Positions 1 through 36,125 are shown, counted from the stretch's first letter. The stretch is DNA of 64,000 bases from a virus (IMGVR_UViG_3300037258_000145:23684-87683); one strand, 5' to 3'. The notes: generated by a model not told the origin, from the letters alone. A program made the numbers and translations.

Positions 1-1473
1 GTTCTGCTCACTGGAGCACCCAGCATAAGTGCTGTCACTGCCGGTTACGTAGACGCCAACGCCGTAGTCGGGGGCCTGGTTCTGGGTTCCCCGCCCGGCA
101 CCGTACATGGGTCGCTGGGGAGCCAACCAGTTGGCGGTGTCCGTCGAGGGGGTGCCACTGTAGGCGGTTAAAGACGAGGCGGCGATGTAGATGCAACCGA
201 GATAAATAGTGGCGGCGCCCGCGGCCCAGTTCAGTCCATTGGTGTAGGGAACTGCCGTGCCGCTGTTGTAGAAGTGACAGTCCGCATAGGAGTTGTCGCC
301 CGCCGCGTTCCACGATCCGCTGAGACCGTTCTCGGAATACTTACAGGCAATGTGCTCATTGTCGAAGTTGCCCTGGAAGTGGCCGCTACCGCCGTTGTGA
401 TTGCAATAGACATTGAAATAGGTGATCTCACCGTGACCGCCAATTGTGCCGTTGATACCCTCGCCCGTCTGGTTCTTGATCGCCACCCGCTCGATGAGCG
501 CATTCGTGTCGAAATCACTGGCCGAAGTGGTGTCAAGAAGCAGCCCTGAATGCCAGTCACCCAAGGTCTGAGCATTTTCCTTGACAATCCGCAGATTGGC
601 CAGTCGGAACCATTGCGCGGCCCCCGTAGCCGACAGAGCAGCGCAGTCGGCATTCGCCGCCTGTGTGATGAAATACCCATTGGCCCATCCGAGACCTTCA
701 AGATTGCCGCCGCTTGGGATGACAAGAGTCGTGGATACGGTGACGACGGGATCTGTGAGCCACAGTACACCAAGCCCTCCAGGCCCAGCCGCCGCGAAAG
801 TAGCCCAGTTGGCCAGTCCTCCGATGGCCGTAGTGCTTGAGAGACCCAAGTTGAAGTTGATGTCGACCTCGGTCCCAGACGTGACCTTGATCGTCTCATT
901 GGGCGACGTGACCGTTCCGCCACCGCCTCCTCCTGGCCCCCACGCCGCCGATGCCCCGCTTGAAGGAGCAGTGGGCACGTAGCCGGGCGTAGGAGTGCCG
1001 GTGGCAAGTTGGGACAAGGGGACCACGCCGACAGGGCCCGTGCTGGCTACTCCGTTGGCCACTCCGACCGAAGTCACCAGCACGTATGAGTACGTCGGCG
1101 TCGACGTGGACGGAGAAAGTTGAGACAGGTCGATCGTCCCCCCAGGTGCCGCGTGAGGGATTACGACATCGTAGGTGCGCGACGGGGAGCCGGTGATGTT
1201 TTCAGTAACGACCCACGTGGAGCCGGTCGGCTGCGTCGTGGTGTCGTCGTTGGCGATCAGGACGATACCGACGGTGCTGTTGACCGAGATCTGGCCGCTG
1301 CCGTTGAGGGTGGCCGTCAGGGGGTTGGTGGAGGCGTCGGCGAACAGCTTGTCAGTCGAGTCCTGCAACAGGGTCGACAACCGGAATGTGACGGAACCTG
1401 CGGCGGGCGTTAGACCGTCACCTGACCCAAAAGGGACCAAATATGTCCCCGTAACGACGATAGGTGTAAACAG
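1..1473 (-). CDS. Tail fibre/tailspike-like protein with beta-helix (pectin-lyase-like) region; runs off the window; probable CTG start
   Basis: Manually translated open frame 1473 to 1, absent from the ORF track: (L)FTPIVVTGTYLVPFGSGDGLTPAAGSVTFRLST...GGGGGG...VSTTLVIPSGGNLEGLG...NVYCNHNGGSG. In-frame TAG lies just upstream of AGGAGGCAT-CTG. Confidence 0.7.
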   Translation of the reverse strand, partial: MFTPIVVTGTYLVPFGSGDGLTPAAGSVTFRLSTLLQDSTDKLFADASTNPLTATLNGSGQISVNSTVGIVLIANDDTTTQPTGSTWVVTENITGSPSRTYDVVIPHAAPGGTIDLSQLSPSTSTPTYSYVLVTSVGVANGVASTGPVGVVPLSQLATGTPTPGYVPTAPSSGASAAWGPGGGGGGTVTSPNETIKVTSGTEVDINFNLGLSSTTAIGGLANWATFAAAGPGGLGVLWLTDPVVTVSTTLVIPSGGNLEGLGWANGYFITQAANADCAALSATGAAQWFRLANLRIVKENAQTLGDWHSGLLLDTTSASDFDTNALIERVAIKNQTGEGINGTIGGHGEITYFNVYCNHNGGSGHFQGNFDNEHIACKYSENGLSGSWNAAGDNSYADCHFYNSGTAVPYTNGLNWAAGAATIYLGCIYIAASSLTAYSGTPSTDTANWLAPQRPMYGAGRGTQNQAPDYGVGVYVTGSDSTYAGCSSEQN

Positions 1474-1493
1474 ATGCCTCCTCTACGCCAAGC

Positions 1494-1874
1494 CTAGACC
1501 GGACAGAAGACAGTCGTCCGCATGCTCCACACCGCGTTTGATGGCGTGCCGGTGTAGCCGATCACCAGGGAGTAAGTGTGGCCCACGGTGAGAGCCGACC
1601 CGCGCAGCATTTGGGTGATGAGCCCGCCTGAGACCGAGGGGACGTCGGACAGGGTGACGACGCTGTTGGGCGTGGTCGAGGTATCGGTCAGGACCGAAGT
1701 GGGGAAGCGGAGCCCCGTGTCGCCAGTCGCGTTCTGATAGGTCGTCGGATCGAAGGTGAACAGTAAGGCATCAGTCGAACCGACCTCGATGGTGGCGGGC
1801 AGCGTGTCGATCAGCATGGGGACCTGAGCGACCAAAGACAGGGTGCGTGGAGGTGCGAATACCAGGAGTGCCAC
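1494..1874 (-). CDS. Small beta-rich virion/tail accessory protein
   Basis: 126-aa T/S/V-rich ORF within the tail gene cluster. Confidence 0.5.
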   Translation of the reverse strand: MALLVFAPPRTLSLVAQVPMLIDTLPATIEVGSTDALLFTFDPTTYQNATGDTGLRFPTSVLTDTSTTPNSVVTLSDVPSVSGGLITQMLRGSALTVGHTYSLVIGYTGTPSNAVWSMRTTVFCPV

Positions 1875-1959
1875 TTCACCTGGGCCCTCGTTCGGTGATG
1901 ACTTGTCGAACCTGGTTTGACAGATGCCTCCTCGACCCTCAGTGTAGTTGAGATGTCAC

Positions 1960-2742: not shown

Positions 2743-2755
2743 TTAGAGCGGGGGT

Positions 2756-3328
2756 CTACGCTGCCTCAAGGTATTGGCCAACGATGGCGCTCGTCTGGGT
2801 CCCGGTGGCGCTCAGGAGCCGGTAATAGCCTGCTGGGACCTTGCACCGGAAGGTCATGATGCCGACCGAAGTGGAGCCGGTGACAAGAGTCGTCTGGGCT
2901 GGCGTGGCTGTCTTACCCACCCCGTCCGCAACCACTAGCGATGTGTTGGCGGTCACGTCCACGTAGACCGTGCACCACACGTCATAGCTCAGGATGTTCT
3001 GCCACGCGGTGCCGAGAACTAAGTTCCCGAGGGCGGTTTGGATGGTGGCTGAAGTCGGCGGGGCTGAGGCGACGGTACCGGGAACAGTCGGAGGGGTGGC
3101 GTTGATGCCCAGTTCAAGCTGAGCCCCAAGAGCGGCGGTGATAGCGGCATTGACGAAGGCGGTATTGGCACCAGCCTGCGAGTTGTCCCCAGCGGGTTGG
3201 GTTGGGACCTTTGGTGCCGGGATCGTCGGTGTATTCAGCGGTGCGACCAGATGCCTCCTTGGGGCATAGCCTACAGCCTGACCGCCCCAGGTCCCGGTAC
3301 CCCATGAGGAGCTACCCCACTGGCTCAC
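2756..3328 (-). CDS. Tail fibre-like structural protein (possible second start at CTG 3250)
   Basis: PTQPAGDNSQAGANTAFV resembles the common tail-fibre repeat; internal in-frame AGGAGGCATCTG at 3248-3259. Confidence 0.6.
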   Translation of the reverse strand: MSQWGSSSWGTGTWGGQAVGYAPRRHLVAPLNTPTIPAPKVPTQPAGDNSQAGANTAFVNAAITAALGAQLELGINATPPTVPGTVASAPPTSATIQTALGNLVLGTAWQNILSYDVWCTVYVDVTANTSLVVADGVGKTATPAQTTLVTGSTSVGIMTFRCKVPAGYYRLLSATGTQTSAIVGQYLEAA

Positions 3329-3429
3329 CGGGCTTGGTGCTTACGCCTTCGCCACACCCCGTAGATGATCGACAGGCCCAACCAGACTTCGGCGACGTCG
3401 CGGTAACTGTCCGATAGGAAGTGGATCAC
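3325..3429 (-). CDS. 34-aa single-TM micro-protein
   Basis: Manual translation MIHFLSDSYRDVAEVWLGLSIIYGVWRRRKHQAR; GTGA overlaps with both neighbours. Confidence 0.5.
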   Translation of the reverse strand: MIHFLSDSYRDVAEVWLGLSIIYGVWRRRKHQAR

Positions 3430-5759: not shown

Positions 5760-5771
5760 GCTTCAAAGTCC

Positions 5772-6443
5772 TCAGGAGTGGGCAAGTTCTATCTCCGTGA
5801 TCGAGGCAAAGCCACCGGATGTCGGGCTGACCACGACGTTAGCGGTACCGGTCGACGTGACAACCCCGTACCAGATCTCTCCGTCTTGGCCGCCGTTGGT
5901 GGCTGTCTGCGCGGCTACCGCTTTGGCGAACCCGCCTGAGACGAGCGAACAGGTGACACCGGTTACGGCTGTCTCGGCTCCCATGGAAATCATGACCACC
6001 ACCAGGTTGCCGATGGTGTGAGTGGTGATCGACAGGGACGCGAACCCGGACCCGTCCCCGCTGGCTACACCAACCTCGCTGATGGTCTTGGCGGGGTAGA
6101 AGAACAGCGCCGCGATAACGCCGCAGTTGTCCGAGCCGTTGTTGTTGTTCGCCGCCGTCGGCGTCGTGACGGACGAAATGCTTGTGTTGTAACAGTAATA
6201 GTTGGTGGTTGCCCCGCCAGGATTGCCGTAGGTGTAGCCCGAGGTCGAACCGCCTGAGTTGGTGCCATAGCTCCAGAAGTTCAGGCCGACATAAGCCTCG
6301 TTGGAGTTAGCCGGCGTCAGGCTGGGGAAGCTGAAAACAGATCCGCTGACCGGTGCGTCGGCATTGGCTCCGGTGGTGTCGACCTGCCAGCCGGTAGCGG
6401 GGGGCGCCGAGACCGCTGCGGCCAGGAGCCGGGCGAATTGCAT
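5772..6443 (-). CDS. Tail-associated accessory protein
   Basis: ATG at 6443 overlaps the upstream TGA; starts MQFARLLAAAVSAPP; T/S/G-rich. Confidence 0.55.
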   Translation of the reverse strand: MQFARLLAAAVSAPPATGWQVDTTGANADAPVSGSVFSFPSLTPANSNEAYVGLNFWSYGTNSGGSTSGYTYGNPGGATTNYYCYNTSISSVTTPTAANNNNGSDNCGVIAALFFYPAKTISEVGVASGDGSGFASLSITTHTIGNLVVVMISMGAETAVTGVTCSLVSGGFAKAVAAQTATNGGQDGEIWYGVVTSTGTANVVVSPTSGGFASITEIELAHS

Positions 6444-8047
6444 CAGGCGTCGAGCAGCGCCGAGGCGATCCAGGCGCTCCGGTGCACGGACCAAGCCAGG
6501 ACCAGGGTGTCAGTTTTGCCGTTGGTAGCCGTGAAGGTGGGAGCCGATCCGCCCACCCACGCCAGGGTCGCGCCGGTAAAAGTCCACGACGCCGCTGAGC
6601 CCGAGGCGGGTTGGTGGAGCATCGCTGCTATCTGGTCTCCTGGGTAGCCGGCGGGCACGGTGATGGCGCAGGAGTCGCCCGCTGTACCTAGAAGCTCAGT
6701 GAGCTTGTTGCGGACCAAGGTACCTGTGGTAGTAACGGTGGCCTGGGATGGGATCAGCGGTTGGGTCTCGGTGATCTGCCAGGTGTTGGCTGCTACCCGA
6801 ACGAGCGTGGCCTTCTCGACTCCACCGGTCAGGGCCACGATGACCGAGGTAGAGGTGGAACCGTTCAGCGATGCCGTGCCGTCGGTGGTGAACGTGATGG
6901 TACCGACACCGGACAGGCCAGTAACCACGATGATGTCAGCGGTGCCCGATGCCCACGCCGTGCCGAACGTCGAATCGTCGGTGACGGTGATCGCGCAGCC
7001 CGAGGAGTCGGAGCACTCGATGAGAGCCCCGACGTCGGTGTGGCTCAGGTTGTGCGTGGCACCGGCCACAGCCACAATGGCAGTCAGGCCCGTGCCCTCG
7101 ATGGTGACAATGCCGTTAGCGCCCGCGGTCGTGACTACCGGCTTGATCCCTGCGGTACCGATGAACTCAACGTTTCCAGTGGCGTTGGCCGACCCGTCGG
7201 TGATCTCCGAGACACCCGAGGACCCGCCGCCGCCCTCCACCCAGGTCTGAGACGAGGTGTCGATGGTGATACCGGCCGTCGGGGTAGCGAGGACCCAGTA
7301 GTACCCGGCGTAGGTACCGAGCTTGACGTGACAGACGCGCCCGCCGTTCACCACGGCCCCCGACGGGAACTCAGTGATACGGGTTAGCGCGCTGGAGGCG
7401 CCGTTCCATTGCCATAGCCCGTTCTGACTGGCCGTGGACTGCACCGTGAGTAGGAGCAGATCGCCGGCGGCCAGCGAGTAGCCGTTGATCGTGGCGCCGG
7501 GAGCGGACAGGGAAGCGATGTTCGACGTCGCCACCGTGGCCGCGGGGGTCAGCTCGGGGACGTGCAGGCCGAAGCGGTTGGTGCCGATGTTGGCGAAGAT
7601 GAGGGTCTTGTCGACCAGGTTGGACGATGCAAGCGACGACGCCCCGCCTGATACGTATATCTCGTTGATGGCGATGTACCCCGAAGGACAGGCGGCCCGG
7701 ACGGGAGGATTGCCGTTGCCAGGTGTCCAGTTGACGACGGAGCACTGCGCGCCCTGGACGATCGAAAGCGTGCCGCTGGGGTTGGAGACGACAAGGTCCT
7801 TGCGGTCGAACGTGGAGGCTGTGGCGCACGTCACGTTGCCGCTAGACCACGAGACGGGGCTCCAGTTCGATATGCCCGTACCGGCCACCACAGCCACCGT
7901 CAGACCGCTTACGACGCTGACGCTGCCACCCGTCAGTACCCCGGTACCGAAGATGGCGTTGACGAGCAGATCGATGTCGTTGACGTCGTCGGCTGCTTGA
8001 CCGGCGTAGGTCGGAGAGTCCTGGGCGTTGTAGAGCTTTAGGGCCAG
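6443..8047 (-). CDS. Tail fibre-like virion protein; probable CTG start
   Basis: Contains GATINGYSLAAGDLLLLTVQSTASQNGLW, a common fibre/decoration motif. Frame extends 50 codons above the ORF-track start to CTG GCC CTA AAG after AGGAGGCAT. Confidence 0.7.
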   Translation of the reverse strand: MALKLYNAQDSPTYAGQAADDVNDIDLLVNAIFGTGVLTGGSVSVVSGLTVAVVAGTGISNWSPVSWSSGNVTCATASTFDRKDLVVSNPSGTLSIVQGAQCSVVNWTPGNGNPPVRAACPSGYIAINEIYVSGGASSLASSNLVDKTLIFANIGTNRFGLHVPELTPAATVATSNIASLSAPGATINGYSLAAGDLLLLTVQSTASQNGLWQWNGASSALTRITEFPSGAVVNGGRVCHVKLGTYAGYYWVLATPTAGITIDTSSQTWVEGGGGSSGVSEITDGSANATGNVEFIGTAGIKPVVTTAGANGIVTIEGTGLTAIVAVAGATHNLSHTDVGALIECSDSSGCAITVTDDSTFGTAWASGTADIIVVTGLSGVGTITFTTDGTASLNGSTSTSVIVALTGGVEKATLVRVAANTWQITETQPLIPSQATVTTTGTLVRNKLTELLGTAGDSCAITVPAGYPGDQIAAMLHQPASGSAASWTFTGATLAWVGGSAPTFTATNGKTDTLVLAWSVHRSAWIASALLDA

Positions 8048-8371: not shown

Positions 8372-8901
8372 CAGGGGTCGACGCCAGGATTGTTCGGGTT
8401 GTAGTAGCTGCCAGGCAGGAAGTTGGCAGTCTCTTCGACGGTCATCACCATGTCGGCGGCGAAGAGGGCGAAACCCTGGCCTGAAGCGTTGGCCCTGATC
8501 CGGGTGTAGTCGACCGACCACTTCTCCCCGACATTCAAGAACTGGGTCTGGAACCCCGTCACCGGATCGGTCCACGGCACCACGGCGTCTGCTGGGTAGA
8601 CGAGGAACTGCGCCAGGACTTGGTCGATCACAAGCGGAAAAGCTGTATCGAGGGCGGGATCATCGAGATTCATTCCTTGCGTCAGTTGGATGTCGACCTG
8701 CCAGGTGAACTTGTAGAAGCCCTGAGGACGAGGAGCGGACTGACGGGCACCGGTCATGCGTCCGCCCCAGATGTAGGCCGCTGGCGCACTGGCACTGTTG
8801 GCCATGACAGGATCGCTGATGTATGCCTGAACCGGATCGGTCTGTGGCGTCCCGAGCCCATCGAGCTGCCCGAAGATCCAGCGCTGGAGGCTTGCTAACG
8901 T
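8371..8901 (-). CDS. Tail terminator/head-tail completion-like protein (start uncertain: ATG 8805 or near-cognate ACG 8901)
   Basis: Position after the connector-like gene; frame open upstream of 8805 (LASLQRWIFGQLDGLGTP) up to TGA 8908-8910. Confidence 0.5.
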   Translation of the reverse strand, partial: TLASLQRWIFGQLDGLGTPQTDPVQAYISDPVMANSASAPAAYIWGGRMTGARQSAPRPQGFYKFTWQVDIQLTQGMNLDDPALDTAFPLVIDQVLAQFLVYPADAVVPWTDPVTGFQTQFLNVGEKWSVDYTRIRANASGQGFALFAADMVMTVEETANFLPGSYYNPNNPGVDP

Positions 8902-12509: not shown

Positions 12510-14498
12510 TCAAAAATACGGCGTTGACGTGCCTGAAGACTGTTGAAGACCGCTAATCAATCCTAAATATTGGGGTGCGGCACAAAAGAATGAGCCGAAA
12601 CGAAGGATGCTTTGCCTGAACGTAGGATCGATTACCGGCCAGCCGATCTGCGCGTAGTCCTGGACCATCACGTTCTCCATGACGTTGCCCAGGTTGTTTT
12701 GCGTCTGGGGCAGCGTGTAGGACAGGAACAATGCCATGCCCTGGGTCATGTACGGATGGACCACGATCTCGGGCATGGACCTCGTGACCGGGTTGACCAC
12801 GTTGGACACGGCGGCGCCGGCGGTAACGCCGGCCATCTCGGTCTGTTGGATCCGGAGCTGATAAGCGGCTACGGATTCGGACAGGATCGAGTTGTTGAGC
12901 GTGGTGGCGTCGTTGGGGCTCGTCATGATCTCGCTCGGGTTGGCGAAGTAGCCGTTGGTCCCGTTGAACATTTGCTGGAGGGCGGTTTGGACCACGCTCA
13001 CGTTGAGCGGGAGCCCTATGCCCTCTTTGTAGTAGCCGGGGTTGACGGCCGGGGAGCTTCCGGGGCCGGGGTAGGGGCCTGAGCCTGAGTTGTAGCTCCG
13101 ACCGCTGACGACGGCGATGATCGACTCCATGCGGTTCGTGGAGCCGGTGCCGGTGTCCGCGCTCGGGGGGTTGGCTCCCGTGGTGGGCAGCGCGCCCTGG
13201 AGCGTGAACTTGGTGGCGCCGACGATCCCGTTCAGGGTGTTGAGGCCGACGAACTGGAACAGGCTGGTCCGGGCGGGCTGGGTCGAGGAGTTGTTCCCGA
13301 TGTAGATCTTGTAGCCCATGGCCCCGTTTACGAGCGGCAGGGTTACGTCGATCACCGAGGTTCCCGTGGTGGCCGTGGTGGACTCGGCGGCAGTGGCGTT
13401 GTAGGTTGTCTCGCCCCAGAAGTCGAGCGCCGTCACGGTGACCCAGATGTTGGTACCACCGGCAAAGGTGATCGGGGTCTCGCCCGTTCCGGCGTTCCTG
13501 GTGGCGATCGTGGCCGTGGTCGGAGTGGCCAGGGCTTGCGAGCTGGACGCCAGGATGTCGTGCTCTTCGAGCAGCATGAACTCTTGGAGCAGGATCATCG
13601 CCGCCAAACCGAACACGTCATCGTAGCCCTGGCCCGCGAATTGGGCCAGCCAGGACACGCCTTCAGTCAGGGCGAAGAACTTGTACGGGATCATCAGGTC
13701 GTACGCCGTCTGGGTGCCCGAAGCCGGCAACGCGTTGGGCCAGGACGAGAAGCTGCCGCCGAAGAACTCAGAGGTGGAGTCGTCCTGGAGGGTACCGAGC
13801 TGGCCCGGGAGCGAACCGGTGATGCTCGCCATGATCTTGGCCCGGTGGTACGTGCCCTGGCCGGGAACGCGCGGGAGCTTGTTCCGGAGCAGGGTGTACA
13901 CGGGGTAGATCGTGCGCACGAACGGCACCAGGTCGTAGGGCACGAAGCCGGACGACAGGGGGCTTGTCAGGGCGATGGTCTTGTTCGACCGTCCTTTGCC
14001 GCCCTTTAGGAGCGACTGGCTCATGTTCTGGGCCGAGAATTGCGTCATGAACTGCATCGGTCCGCGCAGTTCAGGGCAGAAGCTCTTTAGGACCTTGTCG
14101 CCCTTGTACATGGACTTGTGGATCACTTCGTCCAAGGTGGCGGAGGCGAACGCCTCCAGGCGGGCTGAGGTGTTCATGTCGAGCCCGGCACCGTTCAGGC
14201 GCATGGCGGGGTCCTGGATGCGGGCTCCTGCGCTCTTGAGGGCCGGGTTGATGTCCCAGCGCTGGCCGATGTTCTGGGTCCCGTAGCCGCCGATGAGACC
14301 CTTCAGGGCCGCACTGCGGACTTCGGACGCCTTGGAGTAACGACCGCCTTCGATGGCGTCCTGCCAGTCGAGCACGCCGAGCCCGCCGCGGTGAGAACCA
14401 CCGGGAGCTTGGTCGAGCCTGGACTTCAGGCTGGTAAAGGGATTGACGTTCAGGTCTCCCTGCGCGCCTTGCTCCCGTGAGAATGCGGTAAAGGTCAG
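12510..14498 (-). CDS. Major capsid protein; probable CTG start
   Basis: Follows protease/scaffold; GFVPYDL...IYPVYTLLRNKLPRVPGQG, LEEHDIL, IVVHPYMTQG. Frame extends 41 codons above the track start to AGGAGGGCAT-CTG ACC TTT. Confidence 0.8.
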   Translation of the reverse strand: MTFTAFSREQGAQGDLNVNPFTSLKSRLDQAPGGSHRGGLGVLDWQDAIEGGRYSKASEVRSAALKGLIGGYGTQNIGQRWDINPALKSAGARIQDPAMRLNGAGLDMNTSARLEAFASATLDEVIHKSMYKGDKVLKSFCPELRGPMQFMTQFSAQNMSQSLLKGGKGRSNKTIALTSPLSSGFVPYDLVPFVRTIYPVYTLLRNKLPRVPGQGTYHRAKIMASITGSLPGQLGTLQDDSTSEFFGGSFSSWPNALPASGTQTAYDLMIPYKFFALTEGVSWLAQFAGQGYDDVFGLAAMILLQEFMLLEEHDILASSSQALATPTTATIATRNAGTGETPITFAGGTNIWVTVTALDFWGETTYNATAAESTTATTGTSVIDVTLPLVNGAMGYKIYIGNNSSTQPARTSLFQFVGLNTLNGIVGATKFTLQGALPTTGANPPSADTGTGSTNRMESIIAVVSGRSYNSGSGPYPGPGSSPAVNPGYYKEGIGLPLNVSVVQTALQQMFNGTNGYFANPSEIMTSPNDATTLNNSILSESVAAYQLRIQQTEMAGVTAGAAVSNVVNPVTRSMPEIVVHPYMTQGMALFLSYTLPQTQNNLGNVMENVMVQDYAQIGWPVIDPTFRQSILRFGSFFCAAPQYLGLISGLQQSSGTSTPYF

Positions 14499-14514: not shown

Positions 14515-17367
14515 TCAGTCGTCAGAGACCATGGCGATAGCGAACTGCTCGGGAGTCAGTTCTTCCATGGCCTGAGCGATCGCGGGTCCCGCGATCTGCG
14601 AATTGGGGGAATGGATGCCGCTTTTCAGCCGCTTGATCTTGGCGTGGACCTCGGCCAGCTTTTTGCTGTCCACAAGGTCGGGAGTGGGCCGGAATGCCGT
14701 ACCGGTCTGGCGGGCCTTGCGGGCTCGGGGATCGGGTGCCCGAAGGGCGGTCCTCACCTCGGCCTTGAAGGCTTCGAGCTCGGCCCTGGTTATCGTCACC
14801 GTGTCACCTTTCTGGCTCTTGTTCGCCTTTGCCTTGCGGGCCTTACCTTGGTCCGCACCCTTCTCGGGTGCCTTTGGGCCTTTGGCCTTGGCCGCGCCTG
14901 CGGTAGAGGCGGGAGTCAATCTGCCGTCATTGGTGCCTGCTGGTTTCGGTAGGGGGACGGGCTTGGCCGTCGCTTGGTACATGGCGTCTGGTTGGCCCAT
15001 GACGTCGTCGGGGGTGACATCGTTCGGATAGATGCCACCGTCTTTGTCGGCACTGTCGTGCATGGGGCAGATGCCGGGGAAGTTGCGGGCGATGTGGTCG
15101 TGCAGCATGGCCGCTACGTCGCCGTCGCCCTTGTCGCTGTTCTTGTAGAACACCCGCGCCGACGTCGGCGGGGCCAGCTCGGCGGCGGGCTTGTCCTTCT
15201 TGCCCTTCCGGGAGCCTTTCTTGCTCTTGGGCAGGCTGGCAGCCGAGACGCCGGGAGTGGGAGACGGACGAGCTTCGTTCGGGATCTGGCTAGTCCGGTT
15301 GAAGTCGGATGGCCCGAAGGTCGGGGCCATGCCCGGTGTGGGGATAGCGAACCCACCCGTCGGGGTGTCAGAGGTCGCACCGGACAGGAACGGGCGCTTG
15401 AACTGGTCAGGCGAGTTGAGCGTGAACCCCGTACCGGTCATGGTCGGGTACGCCGCTTCCATCGCCTTGTGAGCCGCCGTGCGCAGCCGTTCAAAGGTCG
15501 GGGTCGCCATCTGGCTGAGCTTGGTGGCCGCGGCCAACGAGTCGTAGGCGCGGGTGACGTCGCTCTCGCGTCCCTTGTCCTTGGCCATCTGGTAAGCGGT
15601 GGCGAAGTAAGAGGGGTCGATCGACTTGAGGGCTGACTCGGCGTCCACGGCGTAGACGGGGCACAGGGCATCGTGAGCGGCCAGGGCAGGCAGAGGAACG
15701 TGGCGGGACTTGTTGGCTCGCTTGGCTTTCTTCTTGTCCTTCTTGGCCTTGCGCTTCATACACATCTTGCACTTGCCACACTTGCCGCTGTCGCAGTTGG
15801 CGGGCATGGCGTCGTCAGGATCACCGTCGTCTCCACTCGGGGGCGGGGCGTCGTCATCGGTAGCATCGGCGCTGTCAGCCGGGGGGGCGTCCTTGGCTGC
15901 CTTCGGGGCAACCGGAGGAGCTTCCTTGTTGGCGATGTTGTCCTCGTCGGCATCCTGCGCGTCGTCCAGCACCTCTACGGCGTCTTGGACGTTGTCGAGG
16001 GCGTCGTCCACGATGTCATCCCCCGCTGTGGGCGGGTGATCCTCGGTATCGGCGTCCTGGGCGTCAGAGACATCGCCGGTGGCGTCCATCAGTTCATCGA
16101 TAGCGTCAGACACGTCGTCGTCGGTATCAGGTACTCCGTCATCATTGGAGTCATCCTGCTTGGCCGCTACGGGCTTGGTCTTCTTGGCCTTTTTGAAATC
16201 CATCGGGACCTGGCCGGCGCCTTCGCAGTCAGGGCACTTGCGGTTGCCCATCATGATCGTGCCTGAGCCCTTGCAGGTGGGACATGCCTTGTTGCCCTCG
16301 GTCGGGTCCTTACCGTCGAGACCGCTGGCCGCGGCTGCCTTGGTGGACTTGGCCGTGCATGCCGGGCACTTGCCGCAATCGCCAGACTCGCAATCCTTCA
16401 TCTGCTTCCCTTTCTTGACGCCCCAGCTGTCCGGCAGCTCGGCTGTAAAGCTCGGGCCCTTACGCTTGCACAGGGCTATGAGCTTGGATTTGAACTCTTC
16501 GAAGGTGGTAGAGCCCTTGTACCGGCCCCATGAACTGACGGCATCAGAGACATCGGCCGGAGTGACGACAGGGAACTTGCCATCTCCCTCGTCAGGCAGT
16601 ACGAAGTCGGCCGGGTCGAGCTTGTCCCGGTCCACTCCTCCACCGACATCGGGGTCCATGTCCCGCTTGAAAGCGGCATACCAGTGCGCCGCGGCCAGTG
16701 TCTTTTCGGCTCGGTAGACCATGGCCCGCTTGAGCGCCCTGGTGATCCCGTCGCCTGTCTCGTCTGTTACCGGCACCTCGTCAATACGCGCGGCACCGCG
16801 CGCTTCTGGTTCGCTGGACAGTCCGAACAGGTCGGGGGCTTGGCCCTTCGCCTTGGACTTGGCCATGACGAAGCGAGGCACCTTGGTCTTTTCCTTGGTC
16901 CCGGACACGCCCTCGATGTGAGCGTTCGGGTTCGCCCCGGCGTCAACCAGCGACACCTCACGCGCCCAGCCTCCGACCATTCGGCCGTTGGGGGCTTCGG
17001 GGTCACGGACGTATTCAGGGTCGTACCAGCCAACCGAAAAGTCCTTGTAGACGCCATTGAGCACGTGCTGGACGGCAGTCGGCTCATAAACATGCGCCCG
17101 GATACTCGACCCGTCTTCGGGATCGACTTCCAGGGCTATGCCGTTGCCCGCGGGCGGATAATATTCGCAGTGCTGACCGAACACCGCAGCGCCACCTTGG
17201 TACCAGTCAGATAAGGCCTTGGCGGCAAAGTCAGCATCGACTATCTCGCCGTCTGAGTCCAGGGAATCGTCGGTCACCTTGCCCCAGACGATCACCGAAC
17301 CGTCGGGCTGTTCCTTGCGCTTGGTGATCGGATGATAGGTACGACGGAGCGCGGGCCTAGTAGCCAG
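14515..17367 (-). CDS. Prohead protease-scaffold fusion with extra domains; probable CTG start
   Basis: IVWGKVTDDSLDSDGEIVD...GVYKDFSVG...EVSLVDAGANP (HK97-type protease), CxxCxGxG zinc motifs, acidic tract; TGA AGG CGG CAT CTG start context. Confidence 0.8.
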   Translation of the reverse strand: MATRPALRRTYHPITKRKEQPDGSVIVWGKVTDDSLDSDGEIVDADFAAKALSDWYQGGAAVFGQHCEYYPPAGNGIALEVDPEDGSSIRAHVYEPTAVQHVLNGVYKDFSVGWYDPEYVRDPEAPNGRMVGGWAREVSLVDAGANPNAHIEGVSGTKEKTKVPRFVMAKSKAKGQAPDLFGLSSEPEARGAARIDEVPVTDETGDGITRALKRAMVYRAEKTLAAAHWYAAFKRDMDPDVGGGVDRDKLDPADFVLPDEGDGKFPVVTPADVSDAVSSWGRYKGSTTFEEFKSKLIALCKRKGPSFTAELPDSWGVKKGKQMKDCESGDCGKCPACTAKSTKAAAASGLDGKDPTEGNKACPTCKGSGTIMMGNRKCPDCEGAGQVPMDFKKAKKTKPVAAKQDDSNDDGVPDTDDDVSDAIDELMDATGDVSDAQDADTEDHPPTAGDDIVDDALDNVQDAVEVLDDAQDADEDNIANKEAPPVAPKAAKDAPPADSADATDDDAPPPSGDDGDPDDAMPANCDSGKCGKCKMCMKRKAKKDKKKAKRANKSRHVPLPALAAHDALCPVYAVDAESALKSIDPSYFATAYQMAKDKGRESDVTRAYDSLAAATKLSQMATPTFERLRTAAHKAMEAAYPTMTGTGFTLNSPDQFKRPFLSGATSDTPTGGFAIPTPGMAPTFGPSDFNRTSQIPNEARPSPTPGVSAASLPKSKKGSRKGKKDKPAAELAPPTSARVFYKNSDKGDGDVAAMLHDHIARNFPGICPMHDSADKDGGIYPNDVTPDDVMGQPDAMYQATAKPVPLPKPAGTNDGRLTPASTAGAAKAKGPKAPEKGADQGKARKAKANKSQKGDTVTITRAELEAFKAEVRTALRAPDPRARKARQTGTAFRPTPDLVDSKKLAEVHAKIKRLKSGIHSPNSQIAGPAIAQAMEELTPEQFAIAMVSDD
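16782..16806. repeat. Dispersed palindrome copy 2 (1-nt deletion)
   Basis: CAATA-CGCGCGGCACCGCGCG-CTTC inside the protease gene. Confidence 0.75.
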
Positions 17368-25998: not shown

Positions 25999-26004
25999 TG
26001 TCCG

Positions 26005-27862: not shown

Positions 27863-30800
27863 TTACTTGGTACCAGGTAATTCTTCCCGCACATCCTCAC
27901 GTGGCACGTCGTGATTTTTTGTGTTGTACTGCATCTGGCGCACCTTCTGTGGCCAGTCTGCGTCTCCGCTGCCCGGGGTCCCCACCCAGGCAGCGGAGGT
28001 GGTGTGCCCTGCCTTTTGGAGCGCTTCGGTGCGGTAGTACCCGTCAGCGATGACCATCTTCGGCCCCGCGCCCGCCACTAAGACAATGGGCTTGGGCTGC
28101 TTGCCGCCCTTGATCTCTTCCACCTTTTCCTCGACACGGGCGGGGTCGCGCCCGCCGGGGCGGTGGGCCATTTCGATGTCGTCGAGGGCGACGGCGGGCT
28201 TTAGCTGCCACTCGCAACCCTTCACCCAGTCCAGGTCGACCTTGTCGTAGTGCTTGGCCAGGTACTTGTAGACGTGGTCAGCGGCATCGTCGTCGTCGTC
28301 GGCCTTACCGTAGGCGCCGGGCTTCACCTGTCCTTCAGGCCAGGGAGCGGGCGCTTTGGTAGCGGTGTAGCCGGGAGGGAGGCGGCGGTTCAGGAGGGAT
28401 TCGAACGACTCCTCGTCGGACTTCAGCGCCGGCGCGGCCAGGGTGTGCATGATCTGAGGCAAGCTCGCCATCATTTCGGGACGTAGTGGGAGCTGAGCCA
28501 GGTGGTTGGGGTCGAACCACGCCACGGCCTCGAAGCTGTCGCCGTCGGGATTGTTCACCTCGCGCCATTCGCCCTGGTTGACATCCACGCTCGCCTCATG
28601 GGCTGTCTCGACCACGAAGCCCTGATAGATGCCGCTCGTCCAGGAGCCGAGCCACTTGGCGTCTGCCGGTAGGAAGGTCCCTACCTCTTCGCCCCATTCC
28701 CTCGCCGCGCCTTGCTCGGGTGATTCGCCCGCCTCAAGATGTCCCCCTGGCAATTCCCACATGCCGGCGCAGGGGTCAGAGGGGTCGTTGGCCCGCTGGA
28801 GCAGTAGGACTCGCCCGGAGTCGAAGGCACGGAGCAAAGCGCCAGCACAGGTGACCTGAGGCGTGGCTGTGGTCATCGCTGGGCCTTCGGAATCGGGGCC
28901 CTGTGCCTTGGCGGCGTTGGCTTCGTCGAGGCGTTGCTGGCCCCACTGCTTGGGGTGCTTGGCTGGCTTCTTGCCGCACTGGAGGCAGCGCACTCCTGAG
29001 CCGACGTAGGCATGGCGTTGGGTGCGCTCGGCGACGTTGTTCGGTGCTACCTGGCCCGGTTCGGGGCCTGAGAGGTCGAAGGGGACAAAGCCAGTGTCCA
29101 GGGGTGCTCCGACGCTGATGTCCTTGGGAGTCGCGCGCGTGCGACTTTTGCTCATCCATGCGGGATCGGTGCCCTGCGTGGTCTGGCGGGCGATCGAGGG
29201 GCTTTGGGTCTGAGCTAGGACCGAGTCGCCCTGCTCATAACTGAGCGAGCAGGCGCAGGCGGGCCCTCCGAGGCACAGGGTATCTTGGCCGTAGTCCCCG
29301 TCTCCAGGGAATCCGGGCAGATCAGCGGGGCTAAACGTCTGGCCGTCGAGAGCCAGGCAGTTCTCACAATTTTCGGCGTCACCGAGGGTCCAGCGGATCA
29401 CACTGTTGGTGCCATCGGCATCCGGCGCCGCGGCGATGTAGCCCTGCTCGTACGGCGCCGTGAGCCCATCGGCGTAAGATTGGACCCTGGTAGCGGTCGA
29501 CTGCGCCCCGCTCGGTGCGTTGACCGCGCCTGCGACAACTCCACCGACTACGTCGAGAGCTAGGTCCTTCAGGTACGGCATCATGCTCATGGCCCGGGTT
29601 TGAGCTAGGGCGGGGGCACTCTCGGGACTGGGTGGGCTGGCAGCGTCCCCCCAGTCACCAGCCCCGCTACCGGCACCAGCGGTATATGCGTCCTGGTATG
29701 CCTGAGCCAGGATGGGGATGGCGGCCGGCGCGAACTGGGCGGGCTTTAGCTTGTGATCGGTGAGCTTGTGCACCAGGGCGGTCAGACCGGCCATCAGGGA
29801 GGCTCTGGGCTTGGCCAGAGCGGTCTCCCGGTGGTCTAGCCGTCTCTGGGCCTTAGCGGCCTTCAGGGCGGCCGTGGCGGGGTCCTGCTCGCCTTTGGCG
29901 GCCTTCAGGGCGGCAGGGCGCAGTGCTCGGGGCTCGAAGCTCTCCAGCGACTTGCCGCGGGCCAGATAGCGGCGCAGGGCGCGCAGTTCGTTTGCCTTCT
30001 CTTTTTGGCTGGCCGATTCGTGCGGCTCGGCATCTCCCGCCGCCGTCAGGCCTTGGTCGGCGGTGCTCTTGTCGGGTTCAGGAGCATTGCCGTTGGCGGG
30101 CGGTTTGGGTAGAGCAGGAGGCTTGTTGCCGGGCTTAGGCGGCGCTGGCGGCTTGCTAGCGCCGCCCTCAGGTGGCAAGGGTCGGGAGTTGGCGTCGATC
30201 GGGGCCGGACCTGAGCCGGGCGGAGGGGGCGGAGTTTGGCCCATGGGGATAACGCCGGTCGGGAGGAATTGGAGCGGCACCATCGACCAAGGCTCGTTGT
30301 AGGTCTTCAGGTCCAACGCGATGCACGCTTCGTCGATCGAGGTGAGAGACGCCTTGACGAGTGCAACTTGGTCGGTGATGCGGTCCGACAAGGTCTCGCC
30401 CTGGTCCATGACTCCCCAGGACCACGCCATGTCCGTCTGGCCGAACTTGCCCCGGATCAGGGGATCGAACAGGCCCGTTTTCAGCTTCTTGGCCAGGGGG
30501 ATGGCACTGCGGCGCGTCGTCTGGTCGGCGGCTTGGGTGGCGGCGTTCTTGGAGGCCGCCGGGCTCATCATCGAAGAGAGCTTGGGGGTGATGCCGAGGT
30601 CGCTGATCGACAAGCCGAACGGCATGGCGATGAGTGAGGTAAACCACGTGTCGATGTCGTCGGAGAGGTCGGCCGGCTTTTGGGGACTGACTTTTGCTCC
30701 AGGCGGTGTGACAATGACTTGATGCATGTTGGCGAGGTCGCCACCGAGTTGGTTGATCGCCTGCATGAGCTGGCGGGCTTCCTCGGGCGTAGCGATCGAC

Positions 30801-31858
30801 TCGCCGGGGTCCATGAAAACCGCCGGCAGCGACCCGTTTCGGAACCACTCACTTTGCCAAGTCTGACGGGCCAGCATCAGCGATATGGCCATGATGCCCT
30901 GTTCTGTTGGCCCCATGCCGTAAGGCGTCCAAGTCCTCGGGTTGGACTTGAAGTAGATCATCTCCGACCCGATCCACTCCTCACCCGTGGTGGTCAATTG
31001 GTCTAGCAAGGGGTTTAGCGCCTTGTAATCCTCGATCGTGGCGTCAGGACCGAGGTTGATGATGTCCATGAGGTCGACGCGGGGCACGCCCCAAAGCACC
31101 TGTTGATAGGCCACGGCTGGCTGCTTGGGTCGGGTCCCCCACTCGTCCATCAGGGGCTTTATCAAACTGGCATCTTGTAGGCACAGAGCACCCACGCTTG
31201 AGCCAGCCGGACCGTTCCCCTTCCCACCCGCTGGCTGGAGATAGATGGCCACAGCATCCAGTACAAGATTGTCTTCGAAGAGGGCATTGAGCCAGAGATC
31301 GCCTGAGTCGTACTGGTCAGGGTCAGGGTTCGCAAAGAACTCCATCAGCTCGCCCTTGCGACTCTCCCAGTCGGCTTTCTTGGAGGGATTTCCCTGCATC
31401 CCTGCTTGAGCGGCGGGCGTCGGGACTATGTCGTAGTCGGCGACGATAAGGTCCGCTTTTCTTATTTCTATGCACGTCCGACCAATAGCGGGTATTTCGG
31501 CTAAATCGCGCAGCTGAGCGAAGTTTGCGAGCTTAATTCCTTCGGTGCCGGGCTGGCCGATCGGCAAATTCCAACCGACCATCGGCTGAAGTCGCCTCGG
31601 GCGGGGCCGTCCGTTCGGCTCCTCCGGTATGTCGATGGGCACCGGCAGGATCGGTGACAGCGGGGAGAAGTCGCCGCTCGTGAACGTCTGCATGGGGCGC
31701 GGCAGCCCCAGCAATCCCTCGTATGCCTGACTGGCCCAGCCCGCGGCCTGGCCTGGCAGTTGGTACATGTTCGCCCGAGGACTATTGGGCTGGATGCCGT
31801 TGGCCCCGACGTCACCAGGACGAGCAGAATTGATAACGGCCCTAGCCAAGGGGTTCAC
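27863..31858 (-). CDS. Portal protein fused to MuF-like, Nudix hydrolase and ParB-like domains
   Basis: Portal-like N-terminal ~540 aa (PRTWTPYGMGP); Pro-rich linker; MuF-like CENC...GPACAC; Nudix box GGHLEAGESPEQGAAREWGEEVG; ParB-like KPIVLV...IADGYYRTEA. Confidence 0.8.
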   Translation of the reverse strand: MNPLARAVINSARPGDVGANGIQPNSPRANMYQLPGQAAGWASQAYEGLLGLPRPMQTFTSGDFSPLSPILPVPIDIPEEPNGRPRPRRLQPMVGWNLPIGQPGTEGIKLANFAQLRDLAEIPAIGRTCIEIRKADLIVADYDIVPTPAAQAGMQGNPSKKADWESRKGELMEFFANPDPDQYDSGDLWLNALFEDNLVLDAVAIYLQPAGGKGNGPAGSSVGALCLQDASLIKPLMDEWGTRPKQPAVAYQQVLWGVPRVDLMDIINLGPDATIEDYKALNPLLDQLTTTGEEWIGSEMIYFKSNPRTWTPYGMGPTEQGIMAISLMLARQTWQSEWFRNGSLPAVFMDPGESIATPEEARQLMQAINQLGGDLANMHQVIVTPPGAKVSPQKPADLSDDIDTWFTSLIAMPFGLSISDLGITPKLSSMMSPAASKNAATQAADQTTRRSAIPLAKKLKTGLFDPLIRGKFGQTDMAWSWGVMDQGETLSDRITDQVALVKASLTSIDEACIALDLKTYNEPWSMVPLQFLPTGVIPMGQTPPPPPGSGPAPIDANSRPLPPEGGASKPPAPPKPGNKPPALPKPPANGNAPEPDKSTADQGLTAAGDAEPHESASQKEKANELRALRRYLARGKSLESFEPRALRPAALKAAKGEQDPATAALKAAKAQRRLDHRETALAKPRASLMAGLTALVHKLTDHKLKPAQFAPAAIPILAQAYQDAYTAGAGSGAGDWGDAASPPSPESAPALAQTRAMSMMPYLKDLALDVVGGVVAGAVNAPSGAQSTATRVQSYADGLTAPYEQGYIAAAPDADGTNSVIRWTLGDAENCENCLALDGQTFSPADLPGFPGDGDYGQDTLCLGGPACACSLSYEQGDSVLAQTQSPSIARQTTQGTDPAWMSKSRTRATPKDISVGAPLDTGFVPFDLSGPEPGQVAPNNVAERTQRHAYVGSGVRCLQCGKKPAKHPKQWGQQRLDEANAAKAQGPDSEGPAMTTATPQVTCAGALLRAFDSGRVLLLQRANDPSDPCAGMWELPGGHLEAGESPEQGAAREWGEEVGTFLPADAKWLGSWTSGIYQGFVVETAHEASVDVNQGEWREVNNPDGDSFEAVAWFDPNHLAQLPLRPEMMASLPQIMHTLAAPALKSDEESFESLLNRRLPPGYTATKAPAPWPEGQVKPGAYGKADDDDDAADHVYKYLAKHYDKVDLDWVKGCEWQLKPAVALDDIEMAHRPGGRDPARVEEKVEEIKGGKQPKPIVLVAGAGPKMVIADGYYRTEALQKAGHTTSAAWVGTPGSGDADWPQKVRQMQYNTKNHDVPREDVREELPGTK

Positions 31859-31897
31859 GAGCCGAGCTTTCGTGTCGAGGTGGAGTTCAGATGTCCC

Positions 31898-32039: not shown

Positions 32040-32390
32040 CTGCATAGGTTCTTGGCAACGGCAACGACCTCGTCTCCTCCCCTGTCCTATTGGGGTCTCG
32101 TCGTTGTCACCAGTGTGCTGGCCGCCGGGATCATCGCTCTACTGGTGTGGGTCATCCGCTGGTCAAGGAAGTCCGGAGCGCGTGATGACGCCCTCGACGA
32201 ACTGGTGGCGCTGCGCGGCGACCTGAAAGAACTGCTCCGCTTGGCCAACGGCAACACCAGCGTCTACCCCCCGGTACCGGGATGGAGCCGCACGATCAAT
32301 GTCACATCCCAAGAGACTCAGTGGCTCTCCGAGCATGTCGATCTGAGTGACGCCGACCGACGCAACTTCCAAGCCCTCAGGAGGGTATGA
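32040..32390 (+). CDS. Single-TM holin-like membrane protein; probable CTG start
   Basis: GGGAGGCAT-CTG in frame with the 32052 ORF; TM helix followed by a coiled region. Confidence 0.55.
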   Translation: MHRFLATATTSSPPLSYWGLVVVTSVLAAGIIALLVWVIRWSRKSGARDDALDELVALRGDLKELLRLANGNTSVYPPVPGWSRTINVTSQETQWLSEHVDLSDADRRNFQALRRV

Positions 32391-33619: not shown

Positions 33620-33983
33620 GGCCGTTGAGCGCCGCCAGTTCGGCCAACTCCCGCTCGACGCCCGACACCTGCGGTAAGGAGACGACCGGAGCGCTGGTCT
33701 GGCCGTGGCGAGGCTCATGGGGTAGCGGGGACAGGTGAGGCTCAGGGAGACGCTTGCCGTCGAGGAAGAACCGGGCTCGTGCTGCTCGGCGTGCGTCGCG
33801 GTGCTCGGCCTTGGCGATCGTCACGGCGAGGTCGTAGGACGCCTTGGCCTCGTCCTGGTCGGTCTCGTACTGGCGCTTGGCTGCTTGCCTGGCTGCTTGC
33901 AGAGCGGAGTCGGCTTGGGCCAGCTCAACGTCATACCGACCGTTGAGCGTGGCCATGCCGCTTGAGTAGGTTGCGGTGGTCAT
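33612..33983 (-). CDS. Coiled-coil hypothetical protein, leaderless
   Basis: MTT start preceded by GCTAAGGT. Confidence 0.55.
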   Translation of the reverse strand: MTTATYSSGMATLNGRYDVELAQADSALQAARQAAKRQYETDQDEAKASYDLAVTIAKAEHRDARRAARARFFLDGKRLPEPHLSPLPHEPRHGQTSAPVVSLPQVSGVERELAELAALNGHA

Positions 33984-34268
33984 GTAAGCAACCTTAGCGC
34001 ATTTGCGACGGGGTCAGGAGGGCGAAAGTAGTTCGCCCGCAGGGTGCCAGACCGAATCCGGACCGGTGTACCCACCAGATGGCGGGGCGACCTTGCCGGC
34101 AGCGTGCGCTTCGGCCCAGACAGCATCGGCATGGATAGCGGCGTCGGCGATCTCTTGGTCCGTGGCGTCAGGGGAAGCGACAAATTGCGTTTGCGGCGAG
34201 CCGAACGGAGCGGCTTGGCCAGGAGATAGGAATTGGGGAATGGCAGGTTCAATGGTCATGCCGTCAGC

Positions 34269-36125
34269 CTAACGCCCTGGAAAACCGGACGGGGGCTGTC
34301 CTTGCGCTTTGCGTTCTTCGTCGGTCGGAGGTGCGTACACGCTGGCCCATCCACCTGTTGAGCGAGGTTTGGGCTTGGGTACCAGGACGGGAGGCGCGCC
34401 GTAGACCTGCATCTCTTCGGCCTTGGCCTTCAGTGATTCGGTCAGGTCTTCGCACTCGGCGGCGAGCTTGCCGCAACTGCACCGACCGGCGCCTAGGAGG
34501 TAGGCATCCTGGTAGTGCTGAGGCTTTTCGCCGCGCTCCTCGGCTGCTACGCCGGCGTAGAAGTCAGCCCAACTCATGCCGCCCGCGGCCGCCCAATATG
34601 CTTGAACCACCGCGTCGCCATCATCAGGTGACCGGCCGAGTCGTTTCTTGATGTCGTCCTTGGACTCTATCTGGATCCGGGCTCCGCTGATCTCTCGTTT
34701 GCGAGCTGCCACCAAATCGCCGGTCAGGCGATCGTCGGGGGGTAGAGCCATGTCAAGCTCAGCCGAGGGATCCAACATCTCGCGCAACGACCACCATGCA
34801 GCGGCCCGGACATTGAGCGCCGAAATTTCCCCAGTCGCATCACGCCATTTGGTTGCGCCGCTGCCGTGGAATGCCACGCAGGGCTTACCGATCACCCGGA
34901 GATGGTCGTAGACGCCCGAACCGATGCCATCGGCGTCTACGACCGCCTTGGGGTCGCCGTGGGCTTCCTGGATGGCAGCTACCTTGTCAGCCAGAATCTC
35001 GAGGTTGTCCGTATAGGCGTCTCGGCGCAACTCGATGATCGCATTACCCTGTCTCAGGGCGAAGACGCTCTTATCACCGCCGGCCCGGGCGACGTCGACA
35101 CCGATCACGTGGAGGACTTCGCTGTGACCGAGCACGCGCGCCGTACCAAGAGCAGGGTCGATCTTCGCTCCGTTGCCGCCCAGACGTGAGCCGTAAAGCT
35201 CCAACCAACGGGCATTGGCTGCTTCCACCCATGACAGCGGGATCACCCCGTCGGCGTCGACGGATGCGAACTCGCCGAGGGCCCGGTTCTTGAATAGGGC
35301 GCTGTCCTCGCCCCACAACCGTCCAACCTGATCGACCCATTCCTGAGTAACCCGGCCAGCGGCGATAGCGTCCGACAGGGTGACCTGACGCGTCCACCAG
35401 TTCTCAGTACCGGGCTTGTGGCTCTGGATGTCGTAGAACCGGCCCACGGGCTCGCCAGGGGTTGAGACGGCCAGGGCGTAGGCGTTAGTTCCCGACTTCT
35501 TGCCACCGGTCGAAAAAGCGCCCTCGGCCGAGTCAAAGAAGGCGTCGGGGATACTGCGGGCCTCGTCGAACACGTACAGCAACTCATCGGCGTGGGCGCC
35601 TTCCAGCGCGCTCGGGTCACCGACGGCCATGGCAAAGGCCAGACCGGTGCGAAGTTGGATCGACAGCTTGAGCAGTTCGGCATTCATCTTGAACGGCTCC
35701 CGGCCCACCTTGTCCCAACGCACCCGGCGCGTCCACTTGTGGATCTCAGGCCACAGGTAGTGGATCAACTGGCCCCATACGCTGGCCGTCGTCGGTACTT
35801 TCCAGTCCGCTCCGATGGCGTCGCGGGTCACCGAGAACCACAGGATCGTCAAAGCCGCGATCGTGCTCTTGCCTGAACCATGCAACGAGCGCACACACAC
35901 CCTTCGCTCGTCGGCCAGATGCCCGAGAATGTCCTCCTGGTACGGAGCTAGACCGCCACCCTCAGGCCAGGAAATGCAGTCGTGACACCAACCCACGGGA
36001 TCATTGAGGTAACGCTCTTGCTTGGCTCTCTCGGCGCTTCGGATGCGGCCCGCCGCGGCTAGAGCGCGCTTGCGAAGCTCGGGAGGTAGGACGGTTAGGT
36101 CTAGCGGGACAGCCTTAGTGGGCAG
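34269..36125 (-). CDS. terL: Terminase large subunit; probable CTG start
   Basis: Walker A SLHGSGKST, Walker B LLYVFDEA, nuclease IGVDVARAGGDKS and RSPDDGDA. Frame extends 43 codons upstream (PELRKRALAAAGRIR...RYLNDPVGW) to CAT-CTG. Confidence 0.9.
   Translation of the reverse strand: MPTKAVPLDLTVLPPELRKRALAAAGRIRSAERAKQERYLNDPVGWCHDCISWPEGGGLAPYQEDILGHLADERRVCVRSLHGSGKSTIAALTILWFSVTRDAIGADWKVPTTASVWGQLIHYLWPEIHKWTRRVRWDKVGREPFKMNAELLKLSIQLRTGLAFAMAVGDPSALEGAHADELLYVFDEARSIPDAFFDSAEGAFSTGGKKSGTNAYALAVSTPGEPVGRFYDIQSHKPGTENWWTRQVTLSDAIAAGRVTQEWVDQVGRLWGEDSALFKNRALGEFASVDADGVIPLSWVEAANARWLELYGSRLGGNGAKIDPALGTARVLGHSEVLHVIGVDVARAGGDKSVFALRQGNAIIELRRDAYTDNLEILADKVAAIQEAHGDPKAVVDADGIGSGVYDHLRVIGKPCVAFHGSGATKWRDATGEISALNVRAAAWWSLREMLDPSAELDMALPPDDRLTGDLVAARKREISGARIQIESKDDIKKRLGRSPDDGDAVVQAYWAAAGGMSWADFYAGVAAEERGEKPQHYQDAYLLGAGRCSCGKLAAECEDLTESLKAKAEEMQVYGAPPVLVPKPKPRSTGGWASVYAPPTDEERKAQGQPPSGFPGR

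Follow-up and report, generated by a model that had tools for sequence, protein, structure and literature searches.

CUG as the probable start codon of core virion genes in a soil-phage clade

Virion, packaging and lysis genes in a 64,000-nucleotide stretch of phage DNA (the window, bases 23684-87683 of one 87,683-bp soil-metagenome phage genome, IMGVR_UViG_3300037258_000145) open with a shared module in which a Shine-Dalgarno (SD) sequence is followed by CAT and CTG. These CTGs are very probably genuine CUG initiation codons, a reading drawn from sequence comparison: the coding signal and protein homology reach back to them, and related phages have either CTG or a canonical start at the homologous position. 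Nine genes would start directly at CUG, namely those for the tailspike, the product of 2756-3250, the fibre, the capsid, the protease-scaffold, the holin-like protein and the large terminase TerL, together with two tail genes outside the window, here called gene A and gene B. CUG initiation itself is already known in bacteria. The genome has a GC content of 62.5% and carries nearly all its genes on the minus strand; a codon-usage model trained on long open reading frames (ORFs) predicted 111 genes in the whole genome, which split into a 63-gene late block (virion, packaging and lysis) and a 48-gene early block.

The motif GGCATCTG occurs 10 times in the window against 2.82 copies expected, a count that 0 of 100 shuffles reach, and 13 times in the whole genome, an enrichment that agrees with the original prediction, made from the sequence of the window by a model. 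CATCTG as such has 62 genomic copies, 51 of them ordinary; SD-CAT-CTG modules number 11, nine of them inside the window. Nine of the 11 open long virion, packaging or lysis genes directly and in frame (9/9 direct sites share the frame of the long ORF, for which the chance is (1/3)^9), and each of the other two opens a mini-ORF that ends with its stop against the GTG of the following gene (the portal gene and gene 1494-1874). Six sites had been singled out beforehand, the CTGs at 1473, 8047, 14498, 17367, 32040 (plus strand) and 36125. All six proved to be in frame with a long ORF, with an in-frame stop 3, 10, 19, 3, 6 and 15 codons upstream, respectively, and no ATG, GTG or TTG between; the proposed ORF extensions are borne out as well, the first canonical start lying 11, 50, 41, 24, 4 and 43 codons downstream. 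The module at 32040 works on the plus strand in the same layout as those on the minus strand, so the module follows gene orientation. Sites 15070, 35918 and 58046 are chance copies inside genes.

The predicted spacing of 3-4 nt between SD and start stands for eight of the 11 modules, which have GGAGG or a longer SD at this distance from the CUG; the remaining three have GGGGA (portal mini-ORF), the weak AAGGCGG (protease) or no SD at all (TerL). Within the 5' stretches bounded by the upstream in-frame stop and the first canonical start, an SD 5-mer ends 2-4 nt upstream of 7 of 52 CTG codons vs 30 of 1800 other codons (Fisher p = 4.9e-5). A tally of the triplets after every GGAGG is uninformative, since genes often contain GGAGG internally. 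When the 11 modules were folded locally, no shared structure emerged, and predicted SD accessibility ranged from 0.00 to 0.59.

Moving the start to the first ATG, GTG or TTG costs more than 5 log-odds units of coding score in only 4 of the 111 genes, all of them module-bearing: gene B (34.8 units), fibre (22.4), TerL (6.7) and capsid (6.1). The next-largest losses, 4.6 units for the protease and 3.9 for gene A, again fall on module-bearing genes, and these six are the clear cases that lack a usable ATG, GTG or TTG. Taken together, coding score, homology, PHROG profiles and the starts of relatives place the N-termini at the CTG codons, which gene finders miss.

Capsid relatives with 40-64% identity were found in one IMG/VR contig and 15 metagenome loci, of which 14 loci were read. 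GTG occupies the homologous codon in eight loci (L006, L007, L009-L013 and L017), preceded by an SD of the GGAGG type and a triplet whose last base is T (TTT, CTT or AAT). CTG recurs in L003/L004, which are identical, and in L005, as GGGGCCTT-CTG and AGGAGGCCT-CTG. The L008 capsid has no NTG before codon 104, its first canonical start, and GGAGAGCCCTCT-ATC is its candidate start; the L015 start is ambiguous (ATC or CTG), and L014 runs off its contig. Among ten protease loci, the start is GTG in seven and CTG in L019, L005 and L008; the proteins of our phage and of L019 both begin with L-A, and residues 13-24, upstream of the GTG in our phage, are conserved. Gene A starts with GTG in five of seven loci and with CTG in two. 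For gene B, the ATG of L010 is no more than one codon away from our CTG, and residues 3-87 are 57.6% identical; L019 has a CTG start, its first canonical start lying 78 codons on. TerL homology begins at residue 38 in Streptomyces phage TurkishDelight and at residue 33 in Actinoplanes phage phiAsp2, in both before the GTG at residue 44, and for 15 of the 80 IMG/VR relatives listed the alignment begins within residues 1-11; among the 23 of these 80 loci that were read, L026 has TTG-CCC opposite our CTG-CCC. The IMG/VR record behind L019 gave no TerL match. The check proposed with the original prediction, to see where the homologues begin, comes out in its favor: relatives have GTG, ATG, TTG or CTG at the homologous codon in the same SD geometry, and homology and family profiles, rather than being confined to the region downstream of the GTG or TTG, reach upstream of it.

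A maximum-likelihood tree of 13 capsid rows places our phage with L005 and L019/L004 (support 97/98) and L008 as sister to this CTG group (85/83); the GTG phages form the other group (83/85). Over four orthologous genes, the starts in our clade are 12 CTG and one apparent ATC, none of them canonical, and those in the other clade are 20 GTG and one ATG, none of them weak. CTG was kept while the capsids diverged to 53-62% identity and the flanking bases changed. Since CTG makes up 39% of Leu codons, synonymous drift would yield 12/12 CTG with p = 1.4e-5, a value that ignores shared ancestry. An internal Leu codon or a neutral start would not stay fixed, which argues that CTG is the start codon and is kept by selection.

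Searches returned 301 homologous capsid proteins in all. The 28 closest to our own capsid (57-76% identity) have ragged N-termini in the public calls: in 22 of the 28, the motif and the start of the called protein are 3-52 residues apart (sd 17.6). Twenty GTG-type capsids are uniform, at 631-635 aa, with the motif 55-68 residues from the start (sd 2.5). In two groundwater contigs (L014 305-3016 and L018 5421-5699) an interruption of about 1 kb falls between residues 202 and 204 of the capsid match, and this split in the relative's capsid gene may be an insertion (an intron, intein or homing element).

The base before the start is conserved in both clades: T stands at -1 of 21/21 weak starts in our clade and of 19/21 canonical starts in the sister clade. 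The whole triplet before the weak start is CAT in 11/11 modules here, CGT (three) and CTT (one) in L019, CCT (two) in L005 and TCT (four) in L008. In L008 the weak starts at 9968, 15449, 15833 and 7312 follow CC(N)TCT (TCT-CTG three times, TCT-ATC once) with the SD 6-10 nt away, and GGAG/CUCU pairing could mask the SD there.

At the left end of the window, the tailspike-like gene (709 aa; minus strand, 1-1473, running off the window to genome position 23027) has its CTG at 1473-1471 behind AGGAGG-CAT (1482-1474), and a promoter-like -10 hexamer, TAGGCT (minus strand, 1491-1496), lies 7 nt before the SD of the module. A mini-ORF of 15 codons (minus strand, 1876-1923), opened by AGGAGG-CAT-CTG, ends in a TGA (1878-1876) that is followed, after 1 nt, by GTG 1874 of gene 1494-1874. 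The original prediction had listed the CTG at 3250 as an in-frame site inside the 2756-3328 gene; it is in frame, but is probably the gene's own start. The tail-fibre-like gene would accordingly span 2756-3250 (minus strand, 164 aa) and open with AGGAGG-CAT-CTG; TAGGCT lies at 3273-3268, 7 nt before the SD, a placement that suggests 3250, rather than GTG 3328, as the true start, and phrog_4549 matches residues 2-42. The gene labeled as a fibre, or decoration-like, gene (minus strand, 6443-8047, 534 aa) has its CTG at 8047, its first canonical start 50 codons later, and a weak match to a head-decoration PHROG.

The major capsid gene (minus strand, 12510-14498, 662 aa) has CTG 14498 behind AGGAGGG-CAT; the public protein call (P0004) starts at a GTG and, at 621 aa, is 41 codons short. 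Upstream lies the gene for a head protease-scaffold fusion (minus strand, 14515-17367, 950 aa), with CTG 17367 behind AAGGCGG-CAT and TAGGAT at 17410-17405; phrog_21715 matches it from residue 10, which corresponds to profile position 4. The portal fusion gene (minus strand, 27863-31858, 1330 aa) has its own GTG at 31858, overlapped by the TGA of an 11-codon mini-ORF (minus strand, 31855-31890) that is opened by GGGGA-CAT-CTG; Phage_portal and NUDIX domains are among those that the Pfam overview gives for proteins of the portal block (27863-31858). The holin-like membrane gene (plus strand, 32040-32390, 116 aa) has CTG 32040 behind GGGAGG-CAT. The CTG of TerL (minus strand, 34269-36125, 618 aa), at 36125 in GGAAAC-CAT-CTG, falls within the last 11 nt of an upstream 54-aa ORF (minus strand, 36115-36279; start ATG 36279), whose TAA (36117-36115) follows it; to judge from this arrangement, the ORF probably gives TerL translational coupling. 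Outside the window, gene A (413 aa; genome position 17639) has its CTG behind GGGAGG-CAT, and phrog_290 matches from residue 13, while gene B (1174 aa; genome position 22291) has its CTG behind GGAGGT-CAT and its first canonical start 83 codons later. CTGATG junctions are common (for example at window 10074, genome 10490 and 15646, and L019 6668 and 8930); they contain a TGA/ATG overlap, which is ordinary coupling between adjacent genes and involves no CTG start.

The promoter-like hexamer TAGG[AC]T is strongly strand-biased, occurring 18 times on the minus strand vs four times on the plus strand (minus-strand examples are at window 1496, 3273, 8080, 17410, 18065 and 18391). Its distance upstream of the SD is 7-10 nt in the modules of the tailspike, of 3250 and of gene B, and 20-33 nt in those of the fibre and protease, and leaderless GTG genes are also preceded by it, 7-8 nt away, making it a candidate late -10 element. 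GCTAAGCT is found 11 times on the minus strand and twice on the plus strand, 7-8 nt before ATG-ACC-ACC starts, for example those of genes 41719-42084, 55166-56914 and 57395-57568, whose products often begin with M-T-T. It looks like an early promoter that produces leaderless mRNAs, and early genes are indeed mostly leaderless behind it, as had been predicted. Other late genes have ATG or GTG with an SD at 5-10 nt, or a leaderless GTG. The 12 weak starts are confined to the 63-gene late block; the 48-gene early block has none.

The twelfth weak start differs from the others. A virion gene (minus strand, 8374-8901) encodes a conserved N-terminus that contains no NTG codon, and appears to start at ACG 8901-8899, in AGGTGAGCAGCT-ACG, with T at -1 and no CAT-CTG. 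Opposite this ACG, L019, L006 and L011 have ATG and L008 has GTG. An 8-codon ATG mini-ORF (8921-8895) overlaps the site, its TAG lying 2 nt past the ACG. That one weak start lacks the motif speaks against recognition of GGCAUCUG by a factor; it points instead to SD-led late mRNAs that tolerate near-cognate codons in general.

How could CUG serve these genes? The host initiator tRNA (fMet-tRNA) would read the CUG codons, and the portal gene and gene 1494-1874 would be fed by the CUG-started mini-ORFs that touch their GTG; TerL may rely on the overlap with its upstream ORF instead of an SD. Initiation in E. coli is enhanced when a U at -1 pairs with A37 of the initiator tRNA (PMC10018350); by extension from this work, U-CUG could form three of the four possible pairs. 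CUG initiation-complex structures have been reported (PMC11497404). The design is inherited: at the same genes, one clade of related soil phages retains CUG (once AUC) and its sister retains GUG, and a clade-wide property of the host or the phage probably helps selection hold the codon. CUG use is best read as a constitutive feature of SD-led late mRNAs, not as a demonstrated switch.

Several observations weigh against CUG initiation as set out here. CUG is a poor start in E. coli, where hda and yfjD are the only confirmed cases (EcoGene 3.0, PMC3531124), and CTG is not enriched at Ribo-RET initiation peaks in Mycobacterium tuberculosis (PMC9094748), which makes a CUG start unexpected for a major capsid gene. 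TerL lacks an SD and the protease SD is weak. SD spacing of 3-4 nt is shorter than the 4-10 nt of the canonical SD-led genes of the genome; since the sister clade has equally short spacing at its GTG starts, the spacing is a trait of these genes, not of CTG. The strict CAT (11/11) is not explained by SD and U at -1 alone. Some genes offer alternative starts: a TTG 11 codons downstream in the tailspike gene, with GGGGA 5 nt before it; GTG 3328 upstream of CTG 3250; a TTG four codons on in the holin-like gene, which would sit 15 nt from the SD; and in the L005 and L008 proteases an in-frame GTG/ATG 7 and 13 codons upstream, with no SD. Finally, a single change on the tree explains the clade counts, which are therefore not independent events.

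The original prediction took CUG use further, to a late regulon gated at initiation by a tRNA, by modification of IF3 or the ribosome, or by a GGCAUCUG-binding activator, and this part found no support. Such a translational late switch, in which real CUG starts would stay near-silent until, late in infection, a trans-acting factor (a phage protein, a small RNA, or IF3 or the ribosome as altered by infection) allows SD-YNU-CUG modules to initiate at their near-cognate codon, is rather unlikely. It would account for the confinement of 12/12 weak starts to the virion, packaging and lysis block with none in the early block; among strong-SD starts, weak codons make up 0/5 early vs 12/18 late (Fisher p = 0.014, a heuristic count). 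Whole clades fixed for CTG or GTG across four genes suggest a genome-wide determinant, the triplet before the start is uniform within each genome, and two genes with a good GTG are still fed through a CUG mini-ORF. Yet only 11 modules serve a block of about 63 genes, many of which use ATG or GTG and their own TAGG(A/C)T promoter-like element; the ACG start lacks the motif, and the triplet in relatives is CGT, CTT, CCT or TCT, not CAT. The early/late contrast may have a simpler basis: leaderless initiation requires a 5' AUG or GUG, early mRNAs are mostly leaderless and late ones SD-led, so no switch is needed. Nor did a factor come to light. ARAGORN found no tRNA genes in the genome at default settings and, relaxed to ps90, five weak candidates, none with anticodon CAG, which leaves the proposed CUG-reading initiator tRNA without a gene anywhere in the genome; Rfam families gave 0 hits in the genome, and the 109 proteins scanned contain neither translation-related Pfam domains nor an RNA-binding regulator domain of the RegA/Com type. 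The absence of a factor is weak evidence because many small proteins (most, in the regulator scan) lack a family assignment. It is likewise doubtful that the clade moved its core morphogenesis starts from GUG to CUG (with occasional AUC and ACG) under a trans determinant that makes SD-YNU-CUG efficient only in the infected cell; that determinant would be a phage protein, a small RNA or an infection-induced loss of IF3/P-site proofreading, and the triplet (CAT, CGT, CCT or TCT) would mark the recognising partner.

Readings that dispense with CUG initiation fare worse against the same data. That gene callers pick downstream starts, as in the 621-aa P0004, and that the motif is more uniform than a start context needs and has promoter-like hexamers nearby, could mean that the downstream GTG and TTG codons are the true starts and GGAGGCATCTG is a promoter element, RNA-processing site or protein operator. 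This is quite improbable: all nine direct sites are in frame, coding score and homology reach the CTG, relatives have GTG, ATG or TTG at exactly that codon, the first canonical starts of the L008 capsid and of gene B lie 78-104 codons inside a conserved protein, and the mini-ORFs end exactly at the next start codon. The +1 shift in prfB uses an SD 3 nt before a CUN codon, a layout that the modules resemble, and the scaffold gene ends 16 nt before the capsid CTG; ribosomes might then enter from an upstream ORF by frameshifting or readthrough at an SD-plus-3-nt cassette of the RF2 prfB type. It is highly improbable that they do, given that an in-frame stop lies 3-19 codons upstream, no ORF delivers ribosomes into the module in any frame, several modules stand only 7-10 nt behind a promoter-like hexamer, and relatives have a plain GTG start. 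As the genome is a metagenome assembly, an assembly or base-calling error could in principle turn ATG or GTG into CTG in a fixed context, but there is next to no chance of this: other samples, assembled independently, again show CTG starts (L019/L004, L005 and L008), with different flanking triplets, the 51 other CATCTG copies are ordinary, and Logan contigs of the source run match a 5.1-kb stretch with 0 differences, although these are not independent. On this evidence the frameshift, artefact and promoter-only readings were rejected.

The contig ends in the same 127 nt with which it begins (window 63874-64000 vs genome 1-127), so the assembly closes on itself, being circular or terminally repeated, and the genome is probably complete. 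With TurkishDelight (49% identity) and phiAsp2 (45%) as the best named relatives of TerL, and distant capsid relatives in Arthrobacter and Actinoallomurus genomes, the host of the phage is likely to be actinobacterial. An 8-kb stretch had no megablast match in the phage collection, the capsid protein had three matches there, all distant phage records, and a scan of genome contigs with the capsid alignment found no prophage relative. A run from another soil study (X2) yielded three short identical pieces, none spanning the CTG sites, and the sequencing runs listed for the phage include no RNA run.

If these codons are starts, a codon regarded as marginal in bacteria opens the gene for the most abundant protein of the phage, along with some ten further morphogenesis genes, and some bacterial host must then allow strong CUG initiation, by itself or once infected. 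Gene callers truncate or misplace such genes, and metagenome-derived families of capsids and terminases are affected accordingly. With one clade on GTG and its sister on CTG, nature supplies a comparison for tracing what sets start-codon stringency; were a trans determinant involved, virion assembly would be gated at the level of translation. The literature searched, in which most subscription journals were lacking, yielded no account of phage virion genes with systematic, conserved CUG starts, which leaves the absence of such an account unproven.

Known systems resemble this one in part. The AUU start of infC, through which IF3 autoregulates its own synthesis, shows that near-cognate use depends on IF3 discrimination and is a precedent for a start-codon switch; the phage differs in that many genes are concerned and the codon is CUG, with a first-position mismatch, instead of AUU. 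T4 RegA and Mu Com are phage proteins that bind translational operators, and the likeness lies in a short sequence shared by many ribosome-binding sites of phage mRNAs, here CAT-CTG at 11/11 modules; the difference is that the shared part beyond the SD is only CAT and varies among related genomes. Engineered anticodon mutants of the initiator tRNA reportedly make a non-AUG start efficient when tRNA and codon match, but a private initiator tRNA does not apply here, no tRNA gene having been found in the genome, and neither does the prfB cassette, as no translated 0-frame ORF reads into the SD-plus-3-nt site. NCBI table 11 accepts CTG, ATT and ATC starts. The Phage Annotation Guide, too, treats CTG, ATT and ATC as possible phage starts that callers miss, and it presents them as occasional exceptions, with no systematic conserved use on virion genes (PMC8785237). 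The U(-1)-A37 quadruplet pairing described by Hollerer and Jeschek (2023; PMC10018350) fits the T at -1 in the phage; it was shown in E. coli for AUG reporters, with a modest effect, and rescue of CUG would be an extension of it. A further parallel is E. coli hda and yfjD, chromosomal genes that likewise start from CUG and were found by conservation and inspection of the ribosome-binding site, the annotated downstream TTG being shown to be wrong (EcoGene 3.0, PMC3531124). Whereas hda and yfjD are isolated cellular genes of low abundance, the phage has 11 modules on core virion genes, including the major capsid gene, in a fixed context that is inherited within its clade.

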